From Thermoplasmatales archaeon (lineage in GTDB: Archaea > Thermoplasmatota > Thermoplasmata > Thermoplasmatales > Thermoplasmataceae), in the NCBI GenBank assembly GCA_027310185.1, contig DAIDBH010000019.1:96001-160000 (forward strand): 64,000 bases of DNA. Direction: 5' to 3'. This document shows positions 45,925-56,626 of this stretch, one piece after another; positions within the stretch are counted from its first letter, which is position 1; each line of letters starts with the position of its first letter. A program made the position numbers and the translations under genes. The notes under the pieces are model-generated. The model worked only from the letters and a program-made list of their open reading frames with translations. It did no database searches and had not been told where the DNA came from.

Positions 45925-47643
45925 ATGACCCAGATAGATAATTTCTACAAAAAGAAATTTGAAGAAGCTGAAAAGAGGGCCAGTAAACCTGAGGATTCAA
46001 AAGAGAAGAGATGGAGAAACTCTACACTGGAAACATGGAACAGTAAAACCGGTTACAGTGAGAAAGAATATGTTAATTCATCCAGCATAAGAATTAAAGA
46101 ACTTTACACATCTGATGACCTTCCCGGCAATGAAGAAACCATGCTGGGATATCCTGGCGAGTATCCATTCACCCGGGGAGTGTATCCTAACATGTACCGA
46201 GGAAAATACTGGACGATGAGGATGTTTTCAGGTTTTGGCACCCCAGAAGATACCAATACTAGATTAAAATACCTTATTTCTCATGGAGAAACAGGCCTAA
46301 GTATAGCATTTGACATGCCAACTCTGTATGCGTATGACTGTGATAACATCCGGGCAGAAGGGGAAATTGGTAAGTGTGGTGTAAATGTAACATCGCTAAA
46401 GGACATGGAAGTAGTTTTTGACGGAATAGATCTTTCTAAGGTAACAACGTCAATGACCATAAATGCCCCTGCAGCCGTTCTTACCGCTATGTATTTTGCA
46501 ATAGCGCAGAAGCAGGGAATAAGCCTTGATAAAATAGGTGGAACTGTACAGGCCGATATATTGAAGGAATATATAGCCCAGAAAGAATGGATATATCCAC
46601 CAGAAGCCCACCTGAGAATTATAAAAGATATGATGGTTTACTGCACAGAAAATGCTCCAAAATGGAACTACATAAGTATTTCTGGATACCACATAAGGGA
46701 GGCTGGAGCAAGTGCTGTTCAGGAACTTGCATTCACACTTGCCGACGGATTTTATTACGTGGACATGGGGATAAAGGCAGGGCTTGATCCAAATAAATTT
46801 GCACCGAGACTGTCATTCTTCTTTAATTCTTCCATTAATCTCTTTGAAGAGATAGCTAAAATGAGGGCAGCAAGAAGAATATGGGCAACAGTTCTGAAGG
46901 AGAAATTTGGAGTGACTGACCCGAGGGCACAGATGCTTCGTTTTCACACCCAAACATCCGGATATACATTAACATGGCAGCAACCGCTCAATAACATCGT
47001 CAGAACAACTGTTGAAGCTATGGCAGCTGTTCTGGGGGGAACTCAAAGTTTGCACACCAATTCATATGATGAAGCAATGGCACTGCCATCTGAAGATGCT
47101 GTGAAGATAGCACTCAGAACGCAGCAGATTCTGGCAGAGGAAACTGGAATAGCCGATACCATTGACCCACTCGCAGGTTCATACTACATGGAAGCATTAA
47201 CAAACAAGATAGAAGAGGAAGCCTACAGGTATTTTGACAAGATTGAATCAATGGGTGGAATCCTCAACGCAGTAAAGAATGGGTATATACAGAGGGAAAT
47301 AGCTGCAACATCCTACAGGAGACAGAAAAGACTGGAATCCGGAGAGGAAATAATGGTTGGAGTGAATAAGTATGTTGAAGAGAATGAGAAACCAATCAAT
47401 ATCCTGAAGATATCAAGGGAAGCAGAGCAAATACAGATTGCGAGATTGAAAAAGGTTAAGGAGTCGAGGAATGAGGAAAAAGTTAAGAAAACACTGGATG
47501 AATTGAAGAATGCATTCAGAAACGAGAGTGAAAATATAATGCCCTATCTTATTGAAGCTGCAAAGGCATATGCTACGATAGAGGAAATATCAAACGTTGG
47601 GAGGGAAATATATGGTGGATGGAAAGAACCAGTCATTGTTTAA
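45925..47643 (+). CDS. B12-dependent acyl-CoA mutase large subunit (isobutyryl-CoA-mutase-type residues)
   Basis: PGEYPFTRG, WTMRMFSGF, QADILKEYIAQKEW, SGYHIREAG, SLHTNSYDEA. Confidence 0.92.
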   Translation: MTQIDNFYKKKFEEAEKRASKPEDSKEKRWRNSTLETWNSKTGYSEKEYVNSSSIRIKELYTSDDLPGNEETMLGYPGEYPFTRGVYPNMYRGKYWTMRMFSGFGTPEDTNTRLKYLISHGETGLSIAFDMPTLYAYDCDNIRAEGEIGKCGVNVTSLKDMEVVFDGIDLSKVTTSMTINAPAAVLTAMYFAIAQKQGISLDKIGGTVQADILKEYIAQKEWIYPPEAHLRIIKDMMVYCTENAPKWNYISISGYHIREAGASAVQELAFTLADGFYYVDMGIKAGLDPNKFAPRLSFFFNSSINLFEEIAKMRAARRIWATVLKEKFGVTDPRAQMLRFHTQTSGYTLTWQQPLNNIVRTTVEAMAAVLGGTQSLHTNSYDEAMALPSEDAVKIALRTQQILAEETGIADTIDPLAGSYYMEALTNKIEEEAYRYFDKIESMGGILNAVKNGYIQREIAATSYRRQKRLESGEEIMVGVNKYVEENEKPINILKISREAEQIQIARLKKVKESRNEEKVKKTLDELKNAFRNESENIMPYLIEAAKAYATIEEISNVGREIYGGWKEPVIV

Positions 47644-48058
47644 GGATAAACCGATAAAAATACTACTCGCCAAACCAGGGATTGATGGGCATGACAGGGG
47701 GATACTTGTCCTCGCTAAGGCTTTCAGGGATGCCGGAATGGAAGTACTTTATGCTGGGCTTCTTCCAACACCTGAAGAGGTGATAGATACTGCGGTTAAT
47801 GAAGATGTAGATGTTGTTGCATTGAGCTTATTGAACGGGGCCCATATGACAGTTTTCAAGAAGGTAGCTGAAATAATGAAATCAAGAAATATAGATGATA
47901 TAGCACTTGTTGGGGGAGGAACAATACCGGATGAGGATAAGCCCGAGCTCGAAAAAATGGGGATAACTGGTAATTACGGACCCGGTACGCCACTATCAGT
48001 TATTATCGATCATGTGACTAAAAGGGCAAATGAAGCAAGGGAAAGGAAGCTCAGGTGA
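47612..48058 (+). CDS. Acyl-CoA mutase cobalamin-binding small subunit
   Basis: KPGIDGHDRG (DxHxxG), VGGGTIP; exact start uncertain. Confidence 0.9.
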   Translation: MVDGKNQSLFKDKPIKILLAKPGIDGHDRGILVLAKAFRDAGMEVLYAGLLPTPEEVIDTAVNEDVDVVALSLLNGAHMTVFKKVAEIMKSRNIDDIALVGGGTIPDEDKPELEKMGITGNYGPGTPLSVIIDHVTKRANEARERKLR

Positions 48059-49007
48059 TTTCACGGATATAGATGATCTGATCAGAAGGATTAGAACTGG
48101 AGATAAGCAGGCAATAGCGAGGTCCATTTCACTTGTTGAAGGAGCGAATACAGTTCTCAAGAAGGAACTTCTTACTAAACTTTACCCATACACGGGTCAT
48201 TCTCAGGTAGTAGGTATTACGGGCCCTCCTGGAATAGGTAAAAGCACTCTTATCGGGAATGTATCCTCACTGATCACGAATTCTGGAAAGACTGTTGCAG
48301 TACTTGCTATTGACGCCTCAAGTCCATATACGGGTGGTTCGTTATTAGGAAACAGGATCAGAATGCAGGATCATCTATGGGAAAATAAGATTTACATGAG
48401 GAGTCTGGCAAATAGGGGTTCAAAGGGTGGGCTTGCTGATGCAGCTCTCGGTTCTGTGAGTATTCTTGATGCATCTGGTTTTGATTACATAATTATAGAA
48501 ACTGTTGGTGCCGGTCAGGCTGATCTTGACATAATGAATCTTGCTGATACAACTGTACTTGTCCTCGCACCTGGACTTGGAGATCAGGTACAGGCTATTA
48601 AAGCTGGAATAATGGAAATTGCAGACATTTTTGACATAAATAAGATGGACAGGGATGGTGCCTATTTTGCAATGAAAGACATAGAGGAAACGCTGTCACT
48701 TGATGAGAATAGGGGATTTGCTAGAGAGGTGGTCGGTTCAACTAACACGAGCCCTGAAAGTTACAAAGGGCTTCTTGAAGCCATCAATAGACACAGAAAA
48801 TATCTCGAAGATATGGAATCTCTGGGAAAGAAAAGGCTTGATTTCGGATTGAAGTGGGTACTAGAATCGGAGCTCAAGGAAAAACTGATAGACCCTATCA
48901 TTCAGAAATTTCACCAGAGGGAAAACGAAAAAAATGTCAATTATTATAAAGAGGTAGATTTCTTAATTGCGAGTATGGATATAAGAAATCTATTAGAAAA
49001 AATATAG
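48030..49007 (+). CDS. meaB: MeaB/ArgK-family mutase chaperone GTPase
   Basis: GITGPPGIGKST, GGSLLGNRIRM, ETVGAGQ, KAGIME, NKMD. Confidence 0.9.
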   Translation: MKQGKGSSGDFTDIDDLIRRIRTGDKQAIARSISLVEGANTVLKKELLTKLYPYTGHSQVVGITGPPGIGKSTLIGNVSSLITNSGKTVAVLAIDASSPYTGGSLLGNRIRMQDHLWENKIYMRSLANRGSKGGLADAALGSVSILDASGFDYIIIETVGAGQADLDIMNLADTTVLVLAPGLGDQVQAIKAGIMEIADIFDINKMDRDGAYFAMKDIEETLSLDENRGFAREVVGSTNTSPESYKGLLEAINRHRKYLEDMESLGKKRLDFGLKWVLESELKEKLIDPIIQKFHQRENEKNVNYYKEVDFLIASMDIRNLLEKI

Positions 49008-49319: not shown

Positions 49320-49709
49320 ATGACTACAATTTATGGACCGTTGAAATTTATGGCTGATGAATTCATGAAGAATGTGAATGAAAGGGCGAAAGAAGTTCTT
49401 ACCTATCTTTATCCACCAGTTAGAATGTATGAAGAGAATGGGGAGATTGTAATTGAGGCAGATATGCCTGGATTCGACAAGAAAGATATAAAGGTAACTT
49501 CAAGCAAGATGTCCATAGAGATTTCAGCATCAAGAAAATCTCCAGAAAATGTCAACATGCTACTTGACCAAAGACCCGATAAACTCTGGAAATCGGTAAG
49601 GCTTCCTGTTGAGCTTGATCACGATGCTGCGGTTTCTGCGAAATACACATCAGGAGTTCTTTACATAAGGGCGCCAATTAAGGGCTTAAAGACAGTAAAG
49701 ATAGAATGA
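49320..49709 (+). CDS. Small heat shock protein (Hsp20/alpha-crystallin)
   Basis: PPVRMYE, EADMPGFDKKDIKV, AKYTSGVL. Confidence 0.9.
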   Translation: MTTIYGPLKFMADEFMKNVNERAKEVLTYLYPPVRMYEENGEIVIEADMPGFDKKDIKVTSSKMSIEISASRKSPENVNMLLDQRPDKLWKSVRLPVELDHDAAVSAKYTSGVLYIRAPIKGLKTVKIE

Positions 49710-49788: not shown

Positions 49789-50169
49789 ATGGATTTATTA
49801 GGAATGCTTAGCGTTGCCACAATGACGGCTACGAGCTCGACAGGTTCCCTTACTCTGTCATCGGTTCTAAGTAATCCGCTGGTTGAACTGGCACTAATAT
49901 TCATAGATGGATTACTGTTTGGATTGGGAATTAAGAAGGGTGTATGGTCGGTCATCCTTATAGTAGTTGCAGTGCTCTTATCAGAATACATCAACTATTC
50001 AGTATTGCCAAAAGCTTCCCTGTCTACATTCTATGACGATGTAAAAGCTCACATAGATTACATAATTGCAAATATTAACAAGATAATCCCGTTTTCCAAT
50101 TTGGGTGCGGTTTCAATATCGCTGATACTGTTCATCGTGGGTTTTATAGTCGGATATCTTAAAGGATGA
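49789..50169 (+). CDS. Small membrane protein, FUN14-like
   Basis: GLLFGLGIKKG helix, second TM, amphipathic segment, C-terminal GFIVGYLKG. Confidence 0.55.
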   Translation: MDLLGMLSVATMTATSSTGSLTLSSVLSNPLVELALIFIDGLLFGLGIKKGVWSVILIVVAVLLSEYINYSVLPKASLSTFYDDVKAHIDYIIANINKIIPFSNLGAVSISLILFIVGFIVGYLKG

Positions 50170-50268
50170 GAAAATTCTTGTATCCAACTAGATTACGTTT
50201 GAAATTTTTCTTTTTCAGTCAAACAAAGGAAAACCTTTTATTCTAATTTAAATTGATTTGATGATCAT

Positions 50269-50871
50269 ATGCCTTTATTTAATAGTAGAAAACCGAAAGG
50301 TCTCGAAAGCCTTTCTCCCGATGAACTTGAAAATTTGATTCAGCAGACGAGGACTGAGATTTCCCTTATAGAGAAGGATAATGAGAGAAAACAGGAAAAG
50401 TTTAATTCACTAATGAAAGAGGGTAGCAAGGTTTCTGGTTCAAAAAGAGTTCAGATTGCACAGGAACTTGAGTTACTGGAAAGGAAAATTCACTCCAATG
50501 AGAACCAGATCATGAACCATACAAAGAGAATTGAGCTGATGCAGGAGGTAAAGGAATCAAAGACTTCCGTTTCATCAAGCAGTATAGATACAATCATTTC
50601 GAGGACTGATTCCAATGCAATTAAAACGAACATTCTTCAATCCAAAACAAAAAGTAAGGTGGCCCTTCAGAAGACGGATGATCTCCTGAACACAGTAAGA
50701 GACCTCCAAATTGAAGATGATCAGGGTGCCTCTGTCATGGGTAGCAAGTATATGGAGATGTTCAAGGAAATGGACAGGAATGATAACTCACTTAAGCCTG
50801 GAAAAGTTAAGAAATCAGATGTGGAAGAAAACACCGGAGAAGATACAGAAGGTGATGTAAAAGGGGAGTGA
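50269..50871 (+). CDS. ESCRT-III/Snf7-like coiled-coil protein 1
   Basis: N-terminal MPLFNSRK, long helical hairpin (about aa 17-97), acidic tail; directly upstream of Vps4-like ATPase. Confidence 0.6.
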   Translation: MPLFNSRKPKGLESLSPDELENLIQQTRTEISLIEKDNERKQEKFNSLMKEGSKVSGSKRVQIAQELELLERKIHSNENQIMNHTKRIELMQEVKESKTSVSSSSIDTIISRTDSNAIKTNILQSKTKSKVALQKTDDLLNTVRDLQIEDDQGASVMGSKYMEMFKEMDRNDNSLKPGKVKKSDVEENTGEDTEGDVKGE

Positions 50872-50876
50872 AATAA

Positions 50877-52070
50877 TTGGATTCGGACTACCTGCAGATT
50901 GGAGGCTTAAAGAAGATAATAGCTGATGATATAAAGATGGAAACTACCCTGGAGGAGAAGGGGAAGATCAGGGAAAGTATCACAATGTGTGATAAAATTA
51001 TAAGTAACCTAAAAATGCTGAAAAAACTTGATGGGAACAGTGTATCATATGATTCACTGATAAAATCATGGGAGAAAAGGAAGGAAGAAATTTCTAATTC
51101 CAATCCTGATACTCTGAAGAAACAGGAAAAGAGGGTTGAAAACAGGAAGACGAGCAAAGGTCTTATAGGACAGATGGAACAGGAATTCAGGAGCAGGATA
51201 ATTGCTCTCATCAGTGACTCTAACGTGAAGTGGTCTGAGATCGGTGGTTTGGAGGAGCAGAAGGAGCTTATCAAGGAGGCCGTTTTTTTTTCCATGGCTC
51301 AACCTGATCTTGATGTTAAGGTACCAAACCTGAGAAACATATTATTATTCGGTCCACCGGGAACTGGCAAGACTACCATTGCAAAGGCTATCAGTTCAAA
51401 TATAGATGCAACCTTTTTCAATGTGCCTGTTTCGGAATTAATTTCCCGCTATGTCGGTGATTCCGAGAGGATAGTTTCTGCACTTTACTCGGTTGCGAAG
51501 GAGAAGGCACCATCAGTGGTATTCCTCGATGAAATTGAATCACTCCTGAGACAGAGAGGTGATGGGAACAAGAATGCTGGTGCCGTTCTGCAACAATTTC
51601 TGTCACAGCTTGACGGCTTCTCTACAGATGATAGTTTTATAATGACTGTTGCTGCTACAAATGTACCGTGGGAACTTGACCAGGCTATCTTATCGAGGTT
51701 TGAGAAGAGAATATACATCGGGTTGCCTGATGCTGAGACAAGAAGAAAGATAATAAATATACATACAACAGGAAAGGGTTATCAGGTGGAAGAATCTCTT
51801 GACAATATCGTAGATAGTACAGACGGTTTTTCAGGGCGGGACCTATTTTACCTTTGCTCTGAGGCGATAAGGAATATGTTGAGGAGAACAAACAGGGGAA
51901 TCATGGAAGACAAGGACAGGGTTATAGGCGGTTCTGAAAAGGTAACCTATAGAGTTAACCCGATAACAAAACAAGACTTTGATGCTGCGCTGTCCAAGAT
52001 AAAGCCTGCGGTAAATGAGGAAATGAGCAAAAAATATTATAAATGGAAGGAGGAATACGCAAATAACTGA
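50877..52070 (+). CDS. Vps4/CdvC-like AAA ATPase with N-terminal MIT-like helical domain
   Basis: GPPGTGKT, SRYVGDSE pore loop, VVFLDEIE, AATNVPWELDQAILSRFEKRIYIGLPD, Vps4_C-like PITKQDFDAALSKIKPAV...YYKW. Confidence 0.82.
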   Translation: MDSDYLQIGGLKKIIADDIKMETTLEEKGKIRESITMCDKIISNLKMLKKLDGNSVSYDSLIKSWEKRKEEISNSNPDTLKKQEKRVENRKTSKGLIGQMEQEFRSRIIALISDSNVKWSEIGGLEEQKELIKEAVFFSMAQPDLDVKVPNLRNILLFGPPGTGKTTIAKAISSNIDATFFNVPVSELISRYVGDSERIVSALYSVAKEKAPSVVFLDEIESLLRQRGDGNKNAGAVLQQFLSQLDGFSTDDSFIMTVAATNVPWELDQAILSRFEKRIYIGLPDAETRRKIINIHTTGKGYQVEESLDNIVDSTDGFSGRDLFYLCSEAIRNMLRRTNRGIMEDKDRVIGGSEKVTYRVNPITKQDFDAALSKIKPAVNEEMSKKYYKWKEEYANN

Positions 52071-52735
52071 TGATATTTATGGGAAAAAATGATGATTTTC
52101 AGTCCCTCATTGAGAGTCTTGCATATTACAGGGGTGATTCAGCCAGATCAGAGGGATTAATGAAGAAATTTATTGGATTGTGGTCTTCCTACGGCGATAA
52201 AAAATTCCTCGGTAAAAAGGGTAAGAAAGTGGTGGGAAAGAGTCTTCAGGAATTGTACGTCATGATCGATGTTTCCAGGGAGCATATCGCAGAATTGCAG
52301 AATTTGATTGATCATATGGAAGATGAAAACGAGGAAATGAACAGGATCAAGAAAATAAGGGCAAAGGATTCCCTGAATGCCGAACTTGTAAAGTTTAATC
52401 ACATGGAGGAGAAATACAAATTCATGTCTATGCTTCAGGCAGTGAATGAGTTGATGTCCGCGAAAGATTCAAAGTTCATGAAGAAACTGGATAAAACTCT
52501 CAAGAATCGCCAGATGATAAGAGAATTCCAGAATTCAATAAAGGAAGAAATCAATGATCACGGAAGAATAATGGAAGATATGGATAATATTGAACTGTAT
52601 TTCGAAACGCTTACTGGAAAAACAGTCAAGCCAGAACCTGAGAGCAAGCTCAACAAACCAGATGAGGTGAGAACTGATTCAGAGAATGAAAAAGATGACA
52701 GCGATAACGAGGATGAAAACCCGCAGGTGATATGA
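52070..52735 (+). CDS. Helical coiled-coil protein with acidic tail (possible divergent ESCRT-III)
   Basis: 221 aa, basic N-terminal patch, heptad helices, very acidic C-terminus; translationally coupled. Confidence 0.5.
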   Translation: MIFMGKNDDFQSLIESLAYYRGDSARSEGLMKKFIGLWSSYGDKKFLGKKGKKVVGKSLQELYVMIDVSREHIAELQNLIDHMEDENEEMNRIKKIRAKDSLNAELVKFNHMEEKYKFMSMLQAVNELMSAKDSKFMKKLDKTLKNRQMIREFQNSIKEEINDHGRIMEDMDNIELYFETLTGKTVKPEPESKLNKPDEVRTDSENEKDDSDNEDENPQVI

Positions 52736-52736
52736 C

Positions 52737-53339
52737 ATGAGTGTTTTCAACAGAAAAACAAAGGAAGAGCTTGAAGTTGAAACCCAGATGAACATCAAGC
52801 TACTCAAGAAGAAAGCAGAGGATTATGCTGGAAAATGTGATACAATGGCACAGAAATATGACTCCCAGAAGGAGGCTGCAAGAACAATAGGGAATAAGAG
52901 CCTTGAGCAGGCATTTGAGGAAAAGGCTAAAAATTTACGTGTCCAGGCATCGAAAATAAGGTCTTTTGTTCTTATTGTGGATGATATTGGAATGATGAAG
53001 GATCAGTCCGCATTGATGAATAGCTTTGCAGAAACAATGAAGACATATGTAAAAACCATCGGTAAGGGTCAGGCCAATGCACAGTGGATGTCCCAGATGG
53101 AATCACAGCTTGATAAGGCAGTGGATGAGAGTGAACGTGTGGGCGATCTTTTCGGTGGATTGTTGCAGGACGTTGGTCTTAACCTGAATTTTGAACTTGA
53201 CTCCATAGGTGGAAGAGAGAAGAAACCAGATGCAAACACAAAGAATGAAGAAAAGGTTGAAGAAGTGAATGTTGATGAAATGGAAAAAAAGTTAAGAGAT
53301 AAACTCAGGGATCTGGATAAGACAGATGTGAAGGAATAA
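52737..53339 (+). CDS. ESCRT-III/Snf7(CdvB)-like protein 2
   Basis: MSVFNRK N-terminus, hairpin turning at AARTIGNK, 200 aa, C-terminal MIM1-like DEMEKKLRDKLRDLDK. Confidence 0.7.
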   Translation: MSVFNRKTKEELEVETQMNIKLLKKKAEDYAGKCDTMAQKYDSQKEAARTIGNKSLEQAFEEKAKNLRVQASKIRSFVLIVDDIGMMKDQSALMNSFAETMKTYVKTIGKGQANAQWMSQMESQLDKAVDESERVGDLFGGLLQDVGLNLNFELDSIGGREKKPDANTKNEEKVEEVNVDEMEKKLRDKLRDLDKTDVKE

Positions 53340-53340
53340 T

Positions 53341-54467
53341 ATGCAGGAAACGGAAAGCCTGAAAAGTTATAGAGAAAAACTGGAAAGAATTAAAAAATCA
53401 GACAGTGAGAGAGAGGCGAAGATTTCTAACTGAAAATTCTTGCTGAAGACATAATTACTAATTCGAAGAATAAGGATGACACAGTAAGGATCGAGTTCCT
53501 TAAGATTGCAGATCAGTGTATCAGTGTTATTGATGGATTCAGGAATAACCCTTCCATAAATATTACTCACAGGGACTCCAGTGCTCAGGAAGGAAAATCA
53601 TTGACTGTTAATGATTCTGCTGACTATTTCAGGAGACTCCATCCTGCAATTTCGTCAACATCATTTGAAGATATTGCTGGACTTACGGATGTGAAGAAGA
53701 TAGTGATGAATCAGATCATTAAAGCCAGGGAGAATCAGGAAATAGCCAGGATGTATGGGATTACTGGAAGGAATATTCTCCTGTTCGGTCCACCTGGAAC
53801 TGGAAAAACAAGTATTGCGCAGGCAATCTCTAATAAGGTGCAGTATCCAATAGTTACCATAACACCTTCAGACATCCTTGATAATAAATTTGGTGAATTC
53901 GAAAAGAATATAAGATCACTCTTTCAGGGCGCAGTGGCGAACAAACCCGTAATATTATTCTTTGATGAATTTGAATCCCTCGCAACAAGGCGTACGAGCA
54001 GTAATTCTTCATATATGAAACGTGGCGTTCCCGAGATGTTGCGGCAAATGACGGATATAAGGAAGCAGCTTGATGGGAAGATAATGATAATAGCTGCAAC
54101 AAACAACCCCTGGGATGTTGACGATGCCATGCTTAATCCTGAAAGATTTGACACGAAGATATTTGTTCCCCCACCAGATGAAACTGCCAGATCAGAGCTT
54201 TTCAGGACTTTTCTAAGGGACCTCAAGGTGTCAGATACAATTGATTACGATGAACTTGGACGGAAGTCAGAAGGATTCACTGGAGCAGATATAAAATATA
54301 TCTGCAAAAGGGCAGCTGAAGAAGTATTTTCTGAGGTCATCGATAGGAATGAGATCAGAGAGATCAATCAGGACGATATTATGAGGTCGCTGGAAAAAAG
54401 TTCCAAATCCATAACATCTGATCTTCTTTCAAGGTATTCCCGATTCATGGAAAAATATCACATTTAG
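53341..54467 (+). CDS. Second Vps4-like AAA ATPase; N-terminal helical domain split by a one-base frameshift near 53427-53430
   Basis: ATG 53341 frame stops at 53433, but the frame from 53430 is open into the AAA domain (GPPGTGKT, ILFFDEFE, AATNNPWDVD, RFDTKIFVPPPD). Confidence 0.78.
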
Positions 54468-54469
54468 CT

Positions 54470-56626
54470 TCATTTTCTTTTCTTCCTGTGTCTAATCATG
54501 ATTCCAGCAGCAGCTGATATTAACACTATGCCTATTCCAAATGAGGCAATTATAACTGTGTCATTTTCTGATGTCTTTGGTTCCTTATTTATGGGAATGA
54601 TGTGGGAGGTGTTAAAAGAGGAAATTAAGGAAATTGACCCTGACCTGAGATTGCTCACATAGAGTAGTTTGTTTAAGGAGTCATAGCCAATCCTGAATGG
54701 GGAGTTTCCTGCTGGTATTCTACCGACAATTCCATTATTCATGGAATTTACAACTGCAATGGAATTATCGCCCTCATCTGCAATATAGACATAACCATTC
54801 TGGGGATCGTAGCAAATTCCTTCTGGTTCTGAACCAATGTAAACTTTCTTAATGATCTCATTCGTGGTGGAATTTAACACTACTAAATTTCCAGAATTAA
54901 AATTTATGACGTATAACTCATTGTTATAAGGATCGCACAGAACACCCTGTGGTCCTGATCCAACGCTAACATTTTTAATAACATTGTTGCTGGAAGTATT
55001 TATTACCGAAAGACTATCACTGGCAAAATTGCCAGTGTATATGTATTTATTTTCCTCGTCAAACGCTATTGAAAGTGGACTTTTCCCAATATTTAAGTTC
55101 GCAATAACCTTATTGTCGTTAGAACTAATTATTGAAAGATTATTCGACTTTTCATTTACTACATATATATCATGATTTATAGGATCATAAGATGCCGCTG
55201 ACGGTCCAAAGCCTACATTTATGGATAAAACATCAGCCTGAGTAGAAGAATTGATAACAGAAATATTATTAGAGTCGTAGTTTGTGACATATAAATTGTT
55301 GTTATATTCATCAAAGGTAACTGAGGATGGTCCAACTCCAACGCCAATGCGAGTTGATATGGTGTTTGTTGTAGAATTAATTACATATACAATATTTGAA
55401 AATGCATCAGAAACGTAATAAAAACCGTTGTACGGATCATAGGTTCCGCCCTGTGGGCCTGACCCGGTACTTATTGATTTTACTACCGATTCAGTTAATG
55501 GATTTAATATTGATATATTTGCACTATATTCGTTCATGACATAGACCTCGTTGTTGAAAGGGTTGTATGTGACACCATAAGGATTTAACCCAGCATTCAC
55601 AATTTTAGTTATAAGGTATGAGGAGGAATTTACAATATATACGTTATCCGAACAGAAGTTAGCAACATAGATCTTCCCATTCCTGGAATTATATGATATA
55701 CCGAATGGGGTAAGGCCAAGAGATATTGTTTTTAATATCTTATTTGAAATGGTACTCACCACACTCATATTGTTTGATTGCTCATTAACGACAAAAAGAT
55801 TGTGACTGCTGGGATCGATAGCCAGTTTTGCTGGACCGTGTCCGACGTTAATCACGAATTCCTCGGTTAGATTTAGATTGTATATTGTTATACTGTTTTT
55901 AGCGTAATTTGCAACATAAATTTCACTGTTACCAGAATCAAAGGCAACTGCCGAAGGAGAACTGGTGATTATGGTGTCAACAACCTGATTTGTGGTAGCA
56001 TTAATCACAGATAGTGTATTCGAGTATGAGTTTGCAACCAGGATATAATTTTTGGATGGCACATATGTAAGTGAATCTGGTCCACTTCCTACATTTATGG
56101 ATCTGACAACCCGGTTCTCTACAGTATTGATTACTGTTACATTTGCAGAACCTTTGTTAGCAACGTATACATCCGAATTTTTAGAATCAAAGGTGATTGC
56201 CTGTGGTGCATCTCCGACACTGAACCAGTTAACGGGTGAGTTAGTTGTTGAATTCAGGCTTAGTACATTATTTGTACAGCAATTGGTCACATACATTTCC
56301 TTGTCATAATTGTCAAAGACTGAACAAGTGGGAACTAAACCGTTGTATCCTCCTGAGATATTTCCTTTAGTCAGCTTTTCACTGAATAGGTTCAGAGTGC
56401 AATTTACCTCACCGGGATTTGTAGAATCTAGTGGAACCCTGGAATCAACCTGAATAGATTTTCCGTAAAGATCCAATCCTGATTGAGCTGGGTTCAAGGA
56501 CGACACACTCCTATATAAACCAGGATTTTGGTATGATTCTGATATTATTGGAATTATGAAGAGCAATATAAGAAAAATTACTATGGTTCTGAGTATAATA
56601 TCTCGGTGCCAAAATGCAATTTTCAT
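54470..56626 (-). CDS. YVTN/YncE beta-propeller repeat surface protein, membrane anchored
   Basis: Many roughly 42-aa repeats of the form I.VG..P..I..D......YV.N..S..ISVI; N-terminal signal and C-terminal TM followed by RHRKKRK. Confidence 0.88.
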   Translation of the reverse strand: MKIAFWHRDIILRTIVIFLILLFIIPIISESYQNPGLYRSVSSLNPAQSGLDLYGKSIQVDSRVPLDSTNPGEVNCTLNLFSEKLTKGNISGGYNGLVPTCSVFDNYDKEMYVTNCCTNNVLSLNSTTNSPVNWFSVGDAPQAITFDSKNSDVYVANKGSANVTVINTVENRVVRSINVGSGPDSLTYVPSKNYILVANSYSNTLSVINATTNQVVDTIITSSPSAVAFDSGNSEIYVANYAKNSITIYNLNLTEEFVINVGHGPAKLAIDPSSHNLFVVNEQSNNMSVVSTISNKILKTISLGLTPFGISYNSRNGKIYVANFCSDNVYIVNSSSYLITKIVNAGLNPYGVTYNPFNNEVYVMNEYSANISILNPLTESVVKSISTGSGPQGGTYDPYNGFYYVSDAFSNIVYVINSTTNTISTRIGVGVGPSSVTFDEYNNNLYVTNYDSNNISVINSSTQADVLSINVGFGPSAASYDPINHDIYVVNEKSNNLSIISSNDNKVIANLNIGKSPLSIAFDEENKYIYTGNFASDSLSVINTSSNNVIKNVSVGSGPQGVLCDPYNNELYVINFNSGNLVVLNSTTNEIIKKVYIGSEPEGICYDPQNGYVYIADEGDNSIAVVNSMNNGIVGRIPAGNSPFRIGYDSLNKLLYVSNLRSGSISLISSFNTSHIIPINKEPKTSENDTVIIASFGIGIVLISAAAGIMIRHRKKRK

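Follow-up and report, generated by a model that had tools for sequence, protein, structure and literature searches.

A probable accessory ESCRT-III/Vps4-type operon, with one of its two ATPase genes broken, in a Cuniculiplasma-like archaeon

ESCRT-III together with the ATPase Vps4 is a membrane-scission machine common to archaea and eukaryotes. Here we consider a locus of five genes, H1-A1-H2-H3-A2, which encodes three helical proteins (H1, H2 and H3) and two AAA ATPases (A1 and A2) and is found on the + strand, at positions 50269-54467, of a 64,000-nucleotide stretch of DNA from an acid-mine Thermoplasmatales archaeon. This whole stretch (G000:C4:96001-160000) is called the window, and the genome to which it belongs is 1.88 Mb in size and 99.5% complete. 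The closest described system comes from the Thermoplasmata themselves. A clade of Thermoplasmata Vps4 has been described with a minimal system that consists of Vps4, ESCRT-III and the beta-barrel protein arCOG07400, and Cuniculiplasma is placed among the genomes that have this minimal system plus a complete FtsZ machinery, the function being left open (Makarova et al. 2024, main text; PMC10936438). The part of this text drawn on here makes no mention of extra ATPase paralogues or of a five-gene operon, and its supplementary tables may list the genes (PMC10936438).

The genome under study has the Vps4 and the ESCRT-III protein of that minimal system, here called V3 and H4, and they lie about 10 kb apart on another contig, C13, away from the window operon. 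Since the minimal pair is thus encoded elsewhere, the window operon is an addition to the known system, and the word self-contained, which an earlier note on the window had used for the locus, does not apply. The two loci are related, in that A2 appears as the sister paralogue of V3 and H3 as a paralogue of H4. The window operon differs from the minimal system as a second and larger locus that adds an ATPase type (A1) and two helical families (H1 and H2) and lacks a small protein of the arCOG07400 type. In genomes G099 and G113 the genes that precede Vps4 encode proteins which we assume from their position to be arCOG07400, and tblastn with these finds no homologue in the genome under study (best E 0.29). 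We judge it fairly probable that the locus is an accessory membrane-remodelling module of ESCRT-III/Vps4 type in a Cuniculiplasma-like archaeon, present on top of the minimal pair H4 and V3. The attribution to Cuniculiplasma follows the names given to close homologues ('Cuniculiplasma sp.' for P0010, P0026 and P0036) and the titles of L044 and L053. The genes of the operon and of the minimal pair are these:

50269..50871, + strand: H1, helical protein of 200 aa
50877..52070, + strand: A1, single-domain AAA ATPase of 397 aa with a TTG start
52070..52735, + strand: H2, helical protein of 221 aa
52737..53339, + strand: H3, helical protein of 200 aa
53341..53433, + strand: 5' fragment of A2, with ATG at 53341 and 30 codons before TGA at 53431-53433
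53429..53430, + strand: site of a 1-nt deletion in A2 (AAC-CTG to AACTG)
53430..54467, + strand: remainder of A2 in the -1 frame, with the rest of the N-terminal domain, the AAA domain, the lid and the C-terminal helix
C13:43907-45004 (the same as L039:1907-3004), - strand: V3, a third single-domain Vps4-like ATPase, of 365 aa
C13:55106-55702: H4, 198 aa, found through a weak Snf7 match on this contig

The five genes, as delimited by open reading frame (ORF) calling, are tightly packed: the junctions are, in order, a 5-nt gap, a 1-nt overlap (TGATG), a 1-nt gap and a 1-nt gap. The positions and lengths given in the earlier note are correct, but the second junction is an overlap and not, as stated there, a gap of 0 nt. 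Nor is A2 the one intact ATPase ORF that it was taken for, since a 1-nt deletion had been read through.

With the Cdv system of Crenarchaeota and Thaumarchaeota (CdvA-CdvB-CdvC) the operon has in common an ESCRT-III-type protein and a single-domain AAA ATPase with a helical N-terminal domain. Unlike Cdv, it is found in a genome with two FtsZ genes, both above the Pfam cut-off, and with no match to CdvA (PF18822) at E<=1, the Sulfolobus control being above cut-off; the FtsZ-type genome and the lack of CdvA had both been anticipated. A further difference is that H1-H4, by sequence reading and with no family match, have no winged-helix end. Like eukaryotic and Asgard ESCRT, the genome combines several ESCRT-III paralogues with a Vps4-type ATPase, and A1 has Vps4_C; unlike them, it has two or three paralogous ATPases where they have one, and Pfam recognises no MIT domain in A1 or A2. 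ESCRT-I and ESCRT-II parts were not seen in the loci, and no search aimed at them was made. The likeness to PspA and Vipp1 consists of the helical-hairpin fold class, the presence of Vipp1 and PspA among weak structural matches of H1, and a link to stress genes; the genome itself has no match to PspA (PF04012) at E<=1. PspA systems come without a Vps4-type partner, as a 2025 review has it in the part drawn on here (PMC7619361). The literature search returned no description of the five-gene layout in Archaea or Bacteria. The layout may in this sense count as new, as had been supposed, but ESCRT in Thermoplasmata, Cuniculiplasma included, is surveyed in the main text cited above (PMC10936438).

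To see how the ATPases are related, consider a tree of 52 rows, calculated under LG+C20 by posterior mean site frequency (PMSF) and rooted on the Cdc48 D1 and D2 modules of the same genome, with support given as ultrafast bootstrap/Shimodaira-Hasegawa-like approximate likelihood ratio (SH-aLRT). CdvC forms a clade of 8 rows (100/100). A2 forms one clade of 16 rows (100/99) with the V3-type Vps4 of Thermoplasmata and with the second ATPase of bacterial operons that are described below. The A1-type clade (26 rows, 100/97) unites the A1 of Cuniculiplasmataceae with the first ATPase of these bacterial operons and with further relatives from records titled Micrarchaeota, Aenigmatarchaeota, Nitrosotalea, Argoarchaeum and Methanophagales and from a Thermoplasmatota metagenome-assembled genome (MAG). 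CdvC and the A1-type clade are weakly joined (89/79), and the A1-type and A2/V3-type clades are separated from the Cdc48 D1 and D2 modules (100/98) and stand beside CdvC. In this tree V3 and A2 come out as sister paralogues. A1 falls into a different clade, which crosses the domain boundary and whose single-domain AAA ATPases are paired with an H1-type protein. The label CdvC is our reading of cdvA- and cdvB-like neighbours in loci L071, L073 and L081 and, for the other members, presumed from clade membership.

Four loci of DPANN type and from Nitrosotalea (L067-L070) have an A1-type ATPase followed by a protein of 308-588 aa (e.g., L069:3188-4945 and L068:4910-5836). These proteins have an ESCRT-III-like N-terminus (MILKF..., MGLFRRQ...) and no match to the hidden Markov models (HMMs) of H1-H4, and they may represent another partner family of the A1-type ATPase.

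Each ATPase of the operon has one AAA domain with its lid and, as the earlier note had seen, an ATNxPW motif (AATNVPW in A1, AATNNPW in A2). A1 matches Pfam AAA with E 2.5e-37, AAA_lid_3, and Vps4_C with 24.1 and 26.6 bits in two scans at a cut-off of 21.3. The remainder of A2 matches AAA (E 5e-34) and AAA_lid_3 (E 6e-10), and its Vps4_C score of 13.6 bits is under the cut-off of 21.3 and also under that of the genome's own Cdc48 (16.4), so that the Vps4_C-like terminal helix proposed for both ATPases is recovered above cut-off in A1 but not in A2. The NCBIfam model of CdvC aligns with A1 over residues 26-395 and gives 194 bits, compared with a cut-off of 650. A1 further carries the pore-loop SRYVGDSER, and it has RFEKRIYI where Cdc48 and PAN have RPGRFD; this combination we take to be typical of the Vps4/katanin group. 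When the genome is searched by tblastn with A1, five AAA modules of the class are obtained, A1, A2, V3, Cdc48 D1 and Cdc48 D2, and a PAN-type proteasome ATPase is not found. V3 is the orthologue of the Vps4 of Thermoplasma/Ferroplasma type. V3 also gives the sole Pfam MIT match of the whole genome, with 25.6 bits and hence below the cut-off of 30. Directly upstream of V3 a 282-aa protein without family match is encoded.

The comparison of the ATPase N-termini with MIT, which had been put forward as a check, has a divided outcome: Pfam recognises no MIT domain, but there are profile links of 74-91% to the N-termini of CdvC. The N-termini of Cuniculiplasmataceae A1 match those of CdvC at 73.8% (E 2.9e-5) in profile-profile comparison, and a wider set of A1-type N-termini matches those of CdvC at 91.4% and those of A2 at 93.1%. 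The N-terminal domains of A1 and A2 may, from these profiles, be MIT-like.

Among the helical proteins, H4 serves as the anchor. Members of the H4 family match Pfam Snf7 at E<=1 in seven cases of seven (best E 1.5e-11), and the H4 profile, when compared with the chains of the PDB, matches human CHMP3 with E 2.3e-5 over residues 18-171, and CHMP2A as well. It is because of the seven Snf7 matches and the CHMP3 profile match that H4 is classified as bona fide ESCRT-III. Four genes on the + strand converge on H4 (C13:48134-55101, the same as L039:6134-13101): two encode membrane proteins of 491 and 798 aa with DO-GTPase1/2 matches, one a protein of 556 aa that matches GAP1-N2 weakly, and one a protein of 476 aa without a clear match. 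ORFs that are alike in size and end sequences, a likeness judged by these features and not by Pfam, flank H4 in genomes G195, G183 and G083. A link of ESCRT-III-superfamily proteins to DO-GTPases may be general, as suggested by the DO-GTPases that are noted near PspA in part of a study in mSystems from 2024 (PMC11237479).

Pfam and NCBIfam scans of H1, H2 and H3 return no family. The H3 family is nevertheless connected to H4 in profile-profile comparison: hhalign gives 93.4% with small alignments and, when more sequences are used, 96.7% with E 3.5e-10 over 196 columns, end to end. Against a bacterial Snf7-like set H3 reaches 96.9%. On this basis H3 is taken for a divergent ESCRT-III paralogue, related to H4. 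In direct comparison, none of five H3-family members matches Pfam Snf7 (PF03357), and a PDB profile search with H3 returns no significant ESCRT-III chain. The C-terminal KLRDKLRDL of H3 has L-x3-L-x2-L spacing, which we take to be that of the MIT-interacting motif MIM1, and the C-terminus of H4 we likewise regard as MIM1-like.

For H1 the argument is built on the AlphaFold2 (AF2) model and on remote profile matches. The model, with a predicted local distance difference test (pLDDT) score of 75.8, has helices at residues 17-54, 58-100, 104-112, 115-146 and 160-175, i.e., a long hairpin (17-54 and 58-100), three helices and a disordered acidic tail, and this layout fits the helix order of ESCRT-III. 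Among the matches listed in the Foldseek comparison with the PDB, 20 of the 44 weak rows are ESCRT-III, Vipp1 or PspA. By hhalign, H1 aligns with a merged profile of H3, H4 and the bacterial Snf7-like proteins at 35%, with E 4e-4 over 147 collinear columns. A profile search of 1.84 billion representatives with H1 finds 16 proteins at E<=0.001, and of ten remote relatives that were scanned, two have sub-threshold Snf7 matches over most of the model. H1 and H3 have no similarity in BLASTP, and H1 or H2 reaches at most 10% when compared by hhalign with H4 alone. The model and the remote matches are suggestive, not conclusive, of a weak ESCRT-III likeness of H1.

H2 stands further away. Its AF2 model (pLDDT 73.3) has seven helices, of which two are short, two form a hairpin and three more follow, and then a disordered acidic tail, so that the model leaves room for an ESCRT-III core preceded by an N-terminal extension. 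The similarity of H2 to H1, H3 or H4 by hhalign is at most 1.5%. In its alignment the motif W..[YF]G.KK..GKKG is conserved and the C-terminus reads GV[IL], and at the level of sequence H2 is a helical protein without a recognised family relationship. The proposed match of the whole operon to ESCRT-III/Vps4 is thereby upheld for H3, through H4, and for the ATPases beside CdvC, but it is weak for H1, and for H2 no similarity is detectable.

How much weight a missing profile match should be given can be seen from a control. When the helical families are compared by hhalign with the CdvB-like neighbours of CdvC, they reach at most 18%, and the ESCRT-III control H4 reaches only 0.7%. Since a true ESCRT-III protein scores as low as this, the profile miss of H1 and H2 says little. 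AF2 models cover H1 and H2, and the alignments for H1-H4 are shallow. As leads only, among 30 hits each in the ESM Atlas, clusters tagged Snf7 number 14 for H3 and 2 for H1. The N-terminal basic-hydrophobic motif is conserved in the alignments of H1 (MPLFNSRKPK), H3 (MSVFNRKTK) and H4 (MAIKLRKSE), and the shared start of the two 200-aa proteins, MPLFNSRK in H1 and MSVFNRK in H3, had been recognised correctly beforehand. A motif of this kind, MxxF followed by basic residues, is the typical membrane anchor of other ESCRT-III proteins. A complex prediction with residues 1-100 of A1 and residues 101-200 of H1, both entered as alignments, has a score of 0.00, which is no evidence either way.

The distribution of the operon can be described at two levels. 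Single-protein queries over 201 genomes of the class, in 76 genera and with the genome of the window (G000) included, find H1 in 5 genomes and 2 genera, H3 in 6 genomes and 2 genera, and H4 in 14 genomes and 6 genera, two of these 14 being weak hits inside long ORFs. Two further genera of the GTDB family, which we take for Thermoplasma- and Ferroplasma-type, have their H4 homologues in the order small protein, Vps4 (365-375 aa), ESCRT-III. A pattern scan with the A1 alignment over one genome per GTDB species, to which our HMMs for H1-H4 and A1 were applied, gives 66 loci; as two peptide patterns only were used, the counts are a biased lower bound. Fifteen of these loci (L040-L054) are from records titled Thermoplasmata or Cuniculiplasma. 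H1 and A1 are adjacent in all 15, H2 comes after A1 in 14 (L052 ends at a contig end), and H3 comes after H2 in 13 (L048 and L052 end at a contig end). What follows H3 varies: an A2-type gene in nine loci, the split one of L053 included, H4 in two (L051 and L054, which are the loci of G195 and G183), and neither in two (L046 and L047). Among 61 genomes of 20 genera sampled from the family, full-length A2 orthologues are found in 5 genomes, and V3-type genes in roughly half (at least 31 of 61 among the matches listed). V3 is within a few kb of the operon in L048, G242, G229, G195 and G083, and about 240 kb away in the complete genome G091. From the locus counts and the shifting positions of A2, V3 and H4 follows that H1-A1-H2-H3 is a stable core, while A2, V3 and H4 move or get lost.

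The broken A2 gene of the window is a case in point. The gene is split over two frames, the ATG frame stopping early and the remainder running in the -1 frame to 54467, where the first in-frame start past a stop is the TTG at 53601, which leaves 288 aa. Intact orthologues of 378 aa (G091 and G141) and 396 aa (G083) align across the break, and the N-terminus of those of 378 aa aligns with the 5' fragment; the remainder is 76-79% identical to the intact orthologue of G091. Logan contigs of four runs (X8, X9, X3 and X5) were aligned to 50200-54500. In X8 and X9, which come from two other studies and are about 99% identical to the window, one contig each carries an additional C after 53429, and the frame is thereby restored. 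In the RNA library X3, a 4682-nt contig has zero differences over 50200-54098, and an X5 contig has zero differences over 53220-54500, so that both carry the A2 allele of the window. The studies of X3 and X5 may include the source of the window, and the two contigs therefore exclude an error of this assembly and are not evidence for an independent population. A2 is disrupted by a real 1-nt deletion allele in this strain lineage. Because the motifs downstream of the break (GPPGTGKT, FFDEFE and AATNNPW) are intact, the break looks recent.

Two other accounts of the break were dropped, assembly error because the X3 and X5 contigs have the same allele, and programmed frameshifting because no slippery heptamer is seen and the sister strains simply have one more C. 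In a second Cuniculiplasma-titled MAG (L053:6472-7670) A2 occurs as two separate ORFs, of 225 and 152 aa, through an independent disruption or possibly through an assembly error.

The surroundings of the operon in the window contain the following features 5' of H1:

49320..49709, + strand: hsp20, 129 aa, Pfam HSP20 with E 1.1e-11
49789..50169, + strand: small hydrophobic protein of 126 aa without Pfam family
50236..50253, + strand: A/T-rich, TATA-like stretch (TTTTATTC...TTTAAA), 16-33 nt ahead of the H1 start, by sequence reading

The hsp20 gene is, as had been said, next to the operon, and in 12 of the 15 related loci a homologue of it precedes the operon. The 126-aa neighbour reads as a membrane protein, and its homologue is directly 5' of H1 in 14 of 15. 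The TATA-like stretch is a possible archaeal promoter for the operon. A scan for sigma-70 promoters and terminators gives 16 sites compared with 17.5 expected, by a sigma-70 model that is not applicable to archaea. An RNA-library contig covers the 3' part of hsp20 through 54098, and this is a weak hint of expression, its depth not being an expression measure. Further out, three ORFs 5' of hsp20 (45925-49007, + strand) look, from their translations, like a methylmalonyl-CoA mutase large subunit, a B12-binding subunit and a MeaB-like GTPase. On the other side a 718-aa membrane-anchored protein with many YVTN/YVAN-type repeats (54470-56626, - strand) converges on the end of A2, and it has homologues at the same position in L040 and L041.

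The same pattern scan finds A1-type ATPases with 36-41% identity in nine bacterial loci, all but one of them from MAGs:

L055: Leptolinea tardivitalis YMTK-2, cultured isolate, on a 724-kb contig
L056, L057, L059, L060 and L064: MAGs of Chloroflexota/Anaerolineae
L058 and L063: MAGs of Planctomycetota
L066: MAG of Verrucomicrobiota

With the HMMs applied at E<=1e-3, an H1-like gene adjoins the ATPase in 8 of the 9 loci, a protein related to H3 and H4 is present in 7, and a second single-domain ATPase in 6. The usual order is an HTH_17 gene, H1-like, ATPase 1, Snf7-like, H1-like-nuclease, ATPase 2. The H3/H4-like set of these loci aligns by hhalign with H4 at 97.7% and with H3 at 96.9%, the Snf7-like protein of L056 matches Pfam Snf7 with E 2.1e-4, below cut-off, and the second ATPase of L059 has a Vps4_C score of 31.5 bits. 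Proteins of about 300 aa with an H1-like N-terminus occur in four of the Anaerolineae loci (L057, L059, L060 and L064); the one of L059 (L059:6219-7154) has a staphylococcal-nuclease domain at its end (Pfam SNase, E 1.9e-11), the domain being Pfam-checked for this locus and the same layout being seen by HMM in the other three. The genomes of Leptolinea and of the Verrucomicrobiota MAG have, by whole-genome checks, the H1-A1 pair only.

According to the part of the 2025 review used here, a Vps4-like ATPase 'appears absent in bacteria' (PMC7619361). Passages of the mSystems study from 2024 describe a transfer of VPS4-like ATPases to several bacterial lineages, with Snf7-clade-AAA and PspA-AAA associations, and cases where snf7 is displaced by a TPR-6TM gene or where the ATPase has two AAA domains (PMC11237479). 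In the present bacterial loci, by contrast, an H1-like and a Snf7-like protein are retained together with two single-domain ATPases, and the gene order is almost that of the window operon. Because each of the two ATPase types forms one cross-domain clade, the two-ATPase layout is either old or has moved as a unit. We propose tentatively, and with slightly less than even confidence, that the archaeal operons and those of Anaerolineae, Planctomycetota and Verrucomicrobiota are one two-motor ESCRT-III/Vps4 family, which the two prokaryotic domains share either from an ancient common origin or because it was transferred as a unit.

If the locus is indeed an accessory module of ESCRT-III/Vps4 type, its mechanism could be as follows. 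H1 and H3, together with H4 and perhaps H2, would assemble into polymers at the cytoplasmic side of the membrane, to which they would bind by their basic-hydrophobic N-termini. A1 and A2 would form hexamers that attach, through MIT-like N-terminal domains, to the tails at the C-termini of the helical proteins, and they would extract subunits, whereby the polymer would be remodelled or dismantled. Docking could take place at the MIM1-like KLRDKLRDL of H3, at EIDDLI of H4 and, in H1, at a helix with the conserved sequence KYMEMF...L.P. A1 would probably act on H1, and A2 on H3. That H1 and A1 form a private pair is suggested by their constant pairing. H3-A2, for its part, resembles a duplicate of H4-V3, so that with A2 broken, as in the window, V3 could act on H3 in its place. 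The most likely cellular job is membrane repair, stress remodelling or vesicle release, and not division; this role is favoured because of the two FtsZ genes and the conserved neighbours hsp20 and small membrane protein, and we hold it with less confidence than the type of module.

Several results weigh against an ESCRT-III/Vps4-type module. On the side of the ATPases, the tree was calculated without eukaryotic Vps4, katanin, spastin, PAN and FtsH and covers placement relative to Cdc48 and CdvC only, the NCBIfam models of CdvC, PAN and Cdc48 all give about 190 bits and so cannot tell such ATPases apart, and Pfam MIT has no match in the N-termini of A1 in the window or of A2 in relatives. On the side of the helical proteins, the link between H3 and ESCRT-III rests on profile-profile comparison of shallow alignments, and a PDB search with the H3 profile merged with the bacterial proteins gives CHMP1B rows only, at a non-significant E of 0.24-0.85. 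The H1 model has no Foldseek match in the PDB at E<=0.001, none of ten H1-family members matches Pfam Snf7, and the PDB profile search with a wide H1 alignment gives no significant ESCRT-III chain. The Foldseek matches of H2 in the PDB are generic coiled coils only (0 of 46 listed rows are ESCRT-III, and none is at E<=0.001), and the H2 family has 0 of 7 matches to Pfam Snf7, no Pfam family and no PDB profile match. The nuclease fusion in the bacterial relatives could point to another function. Finally, A2 is repeatedly lost or broken (broken in the window, split in L053 and missing from four related loci), and from this follows that the two-ATPase design is not essential.

Some of these results are also what speaks for other readings of the locus. 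AAA ATPases and coiled coils could make up a conflict or defence module, which senses or executes an abortive response. Such a module would be in line with the SNase fusion to an H1-like protein in Anaerolineae and the HTH_17 protein upstream in bacterial loci, with the DO-GTPase1/2 and GAP1-N2-like genes that flank H4 in the own genome and the similar-sized ORFs that flank it in G195, G183 and G083, and with the patchy, cross-domain distribution of the operon and the repeated loss of A2. We consider it unlikely, in view of the homology by which H3 and H4 are assigned to ESCRT-III, of an archaeal operon that encodes no nuclease, and of a stable place beside hsp20 in 12 of 15 Cuniculiplasmataceae loci, unlike a mobile defence island. 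PADLOC, in addition, has no family for H1, H2 or H3 at E<=0.01 and only generic AAA matches for the ATPases (IetA, 113-139 bits), compared with about 190 bits to CdvC, PAN and Cdc48. The neighbouring hsp20 can alternatively be understood as a sign of protein quality control without membranes, where A1 and A2 are unfoldases, co-regulated with hsp20, and H1, H2 and perhaps H3 are their adaptors or substrates. PAN was not found in the genome by tblastn, H1 and H2 are without significant ESCRT-III match, and the PAN and Cdc48 scores of NCBIfam equal those of CdvC, all of which would suit unfoldases; yet H3 is related to H4 and hence to ESCRT-III, A1 has a Vps4_C-type C-terminus, the MxxF-basic N-termini of H1 and H3 are of the kind typical of ESCRT-III anchors, and both ATPases are placed apart from Cdc48 and beside CdvC in the tree. 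We regard this reading as quite unlikely.

A cell-division machine, finally, appears very unlikely to us. ESCRT-III with Vps4 divides Sulfolobus, and the present operon could act in division in the manner of Cdv. The main text of Makarova et al. 2024 proposes a division role for the reduced Thermoplasmata ESCRT in genera without FtsZ (PMC10936438). The genome of the window, however, has two FtsZ genes and no CdvA, the operon is found in only 2 of the 76 genera sampled in the class by single-protein queries, and its A2 is broken here and missing in relatives. We thus retain the accessory ESCRT-III/Vps4-type module as the preferred reading.

The locus bears on how often ESCRT-III and Vps4 have been duplicated, reduced and re-purposed. 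A lineage that has been described as 'minimal' has as many as four ESCRT-III-like proteins and as many as three Vps4-like ATPases, and one of these ATPases, A2, is visibly being lost. The A1-H1 pair, and often the whole layout of helical protein, ATPase, two helical proteins and ATPase, recurs in bacteria. If archaeal and bacterial operons are one family, then Snf7-type ESCRT-III filaments with dedicated Vps4-type disassembly ATPases would exist in Bacteria, the bacterial version of the machine would be coupled to a nuclease, and H1, perhaps with H2, would found a new branch of the ESCRT-III superfamily with A1 as its private ATPase. With the isolate Leptolinea tardivitalis among the carriers, there would be a tractable organism in which to ask about Vps4-driven ESCRT-III in bacteria.

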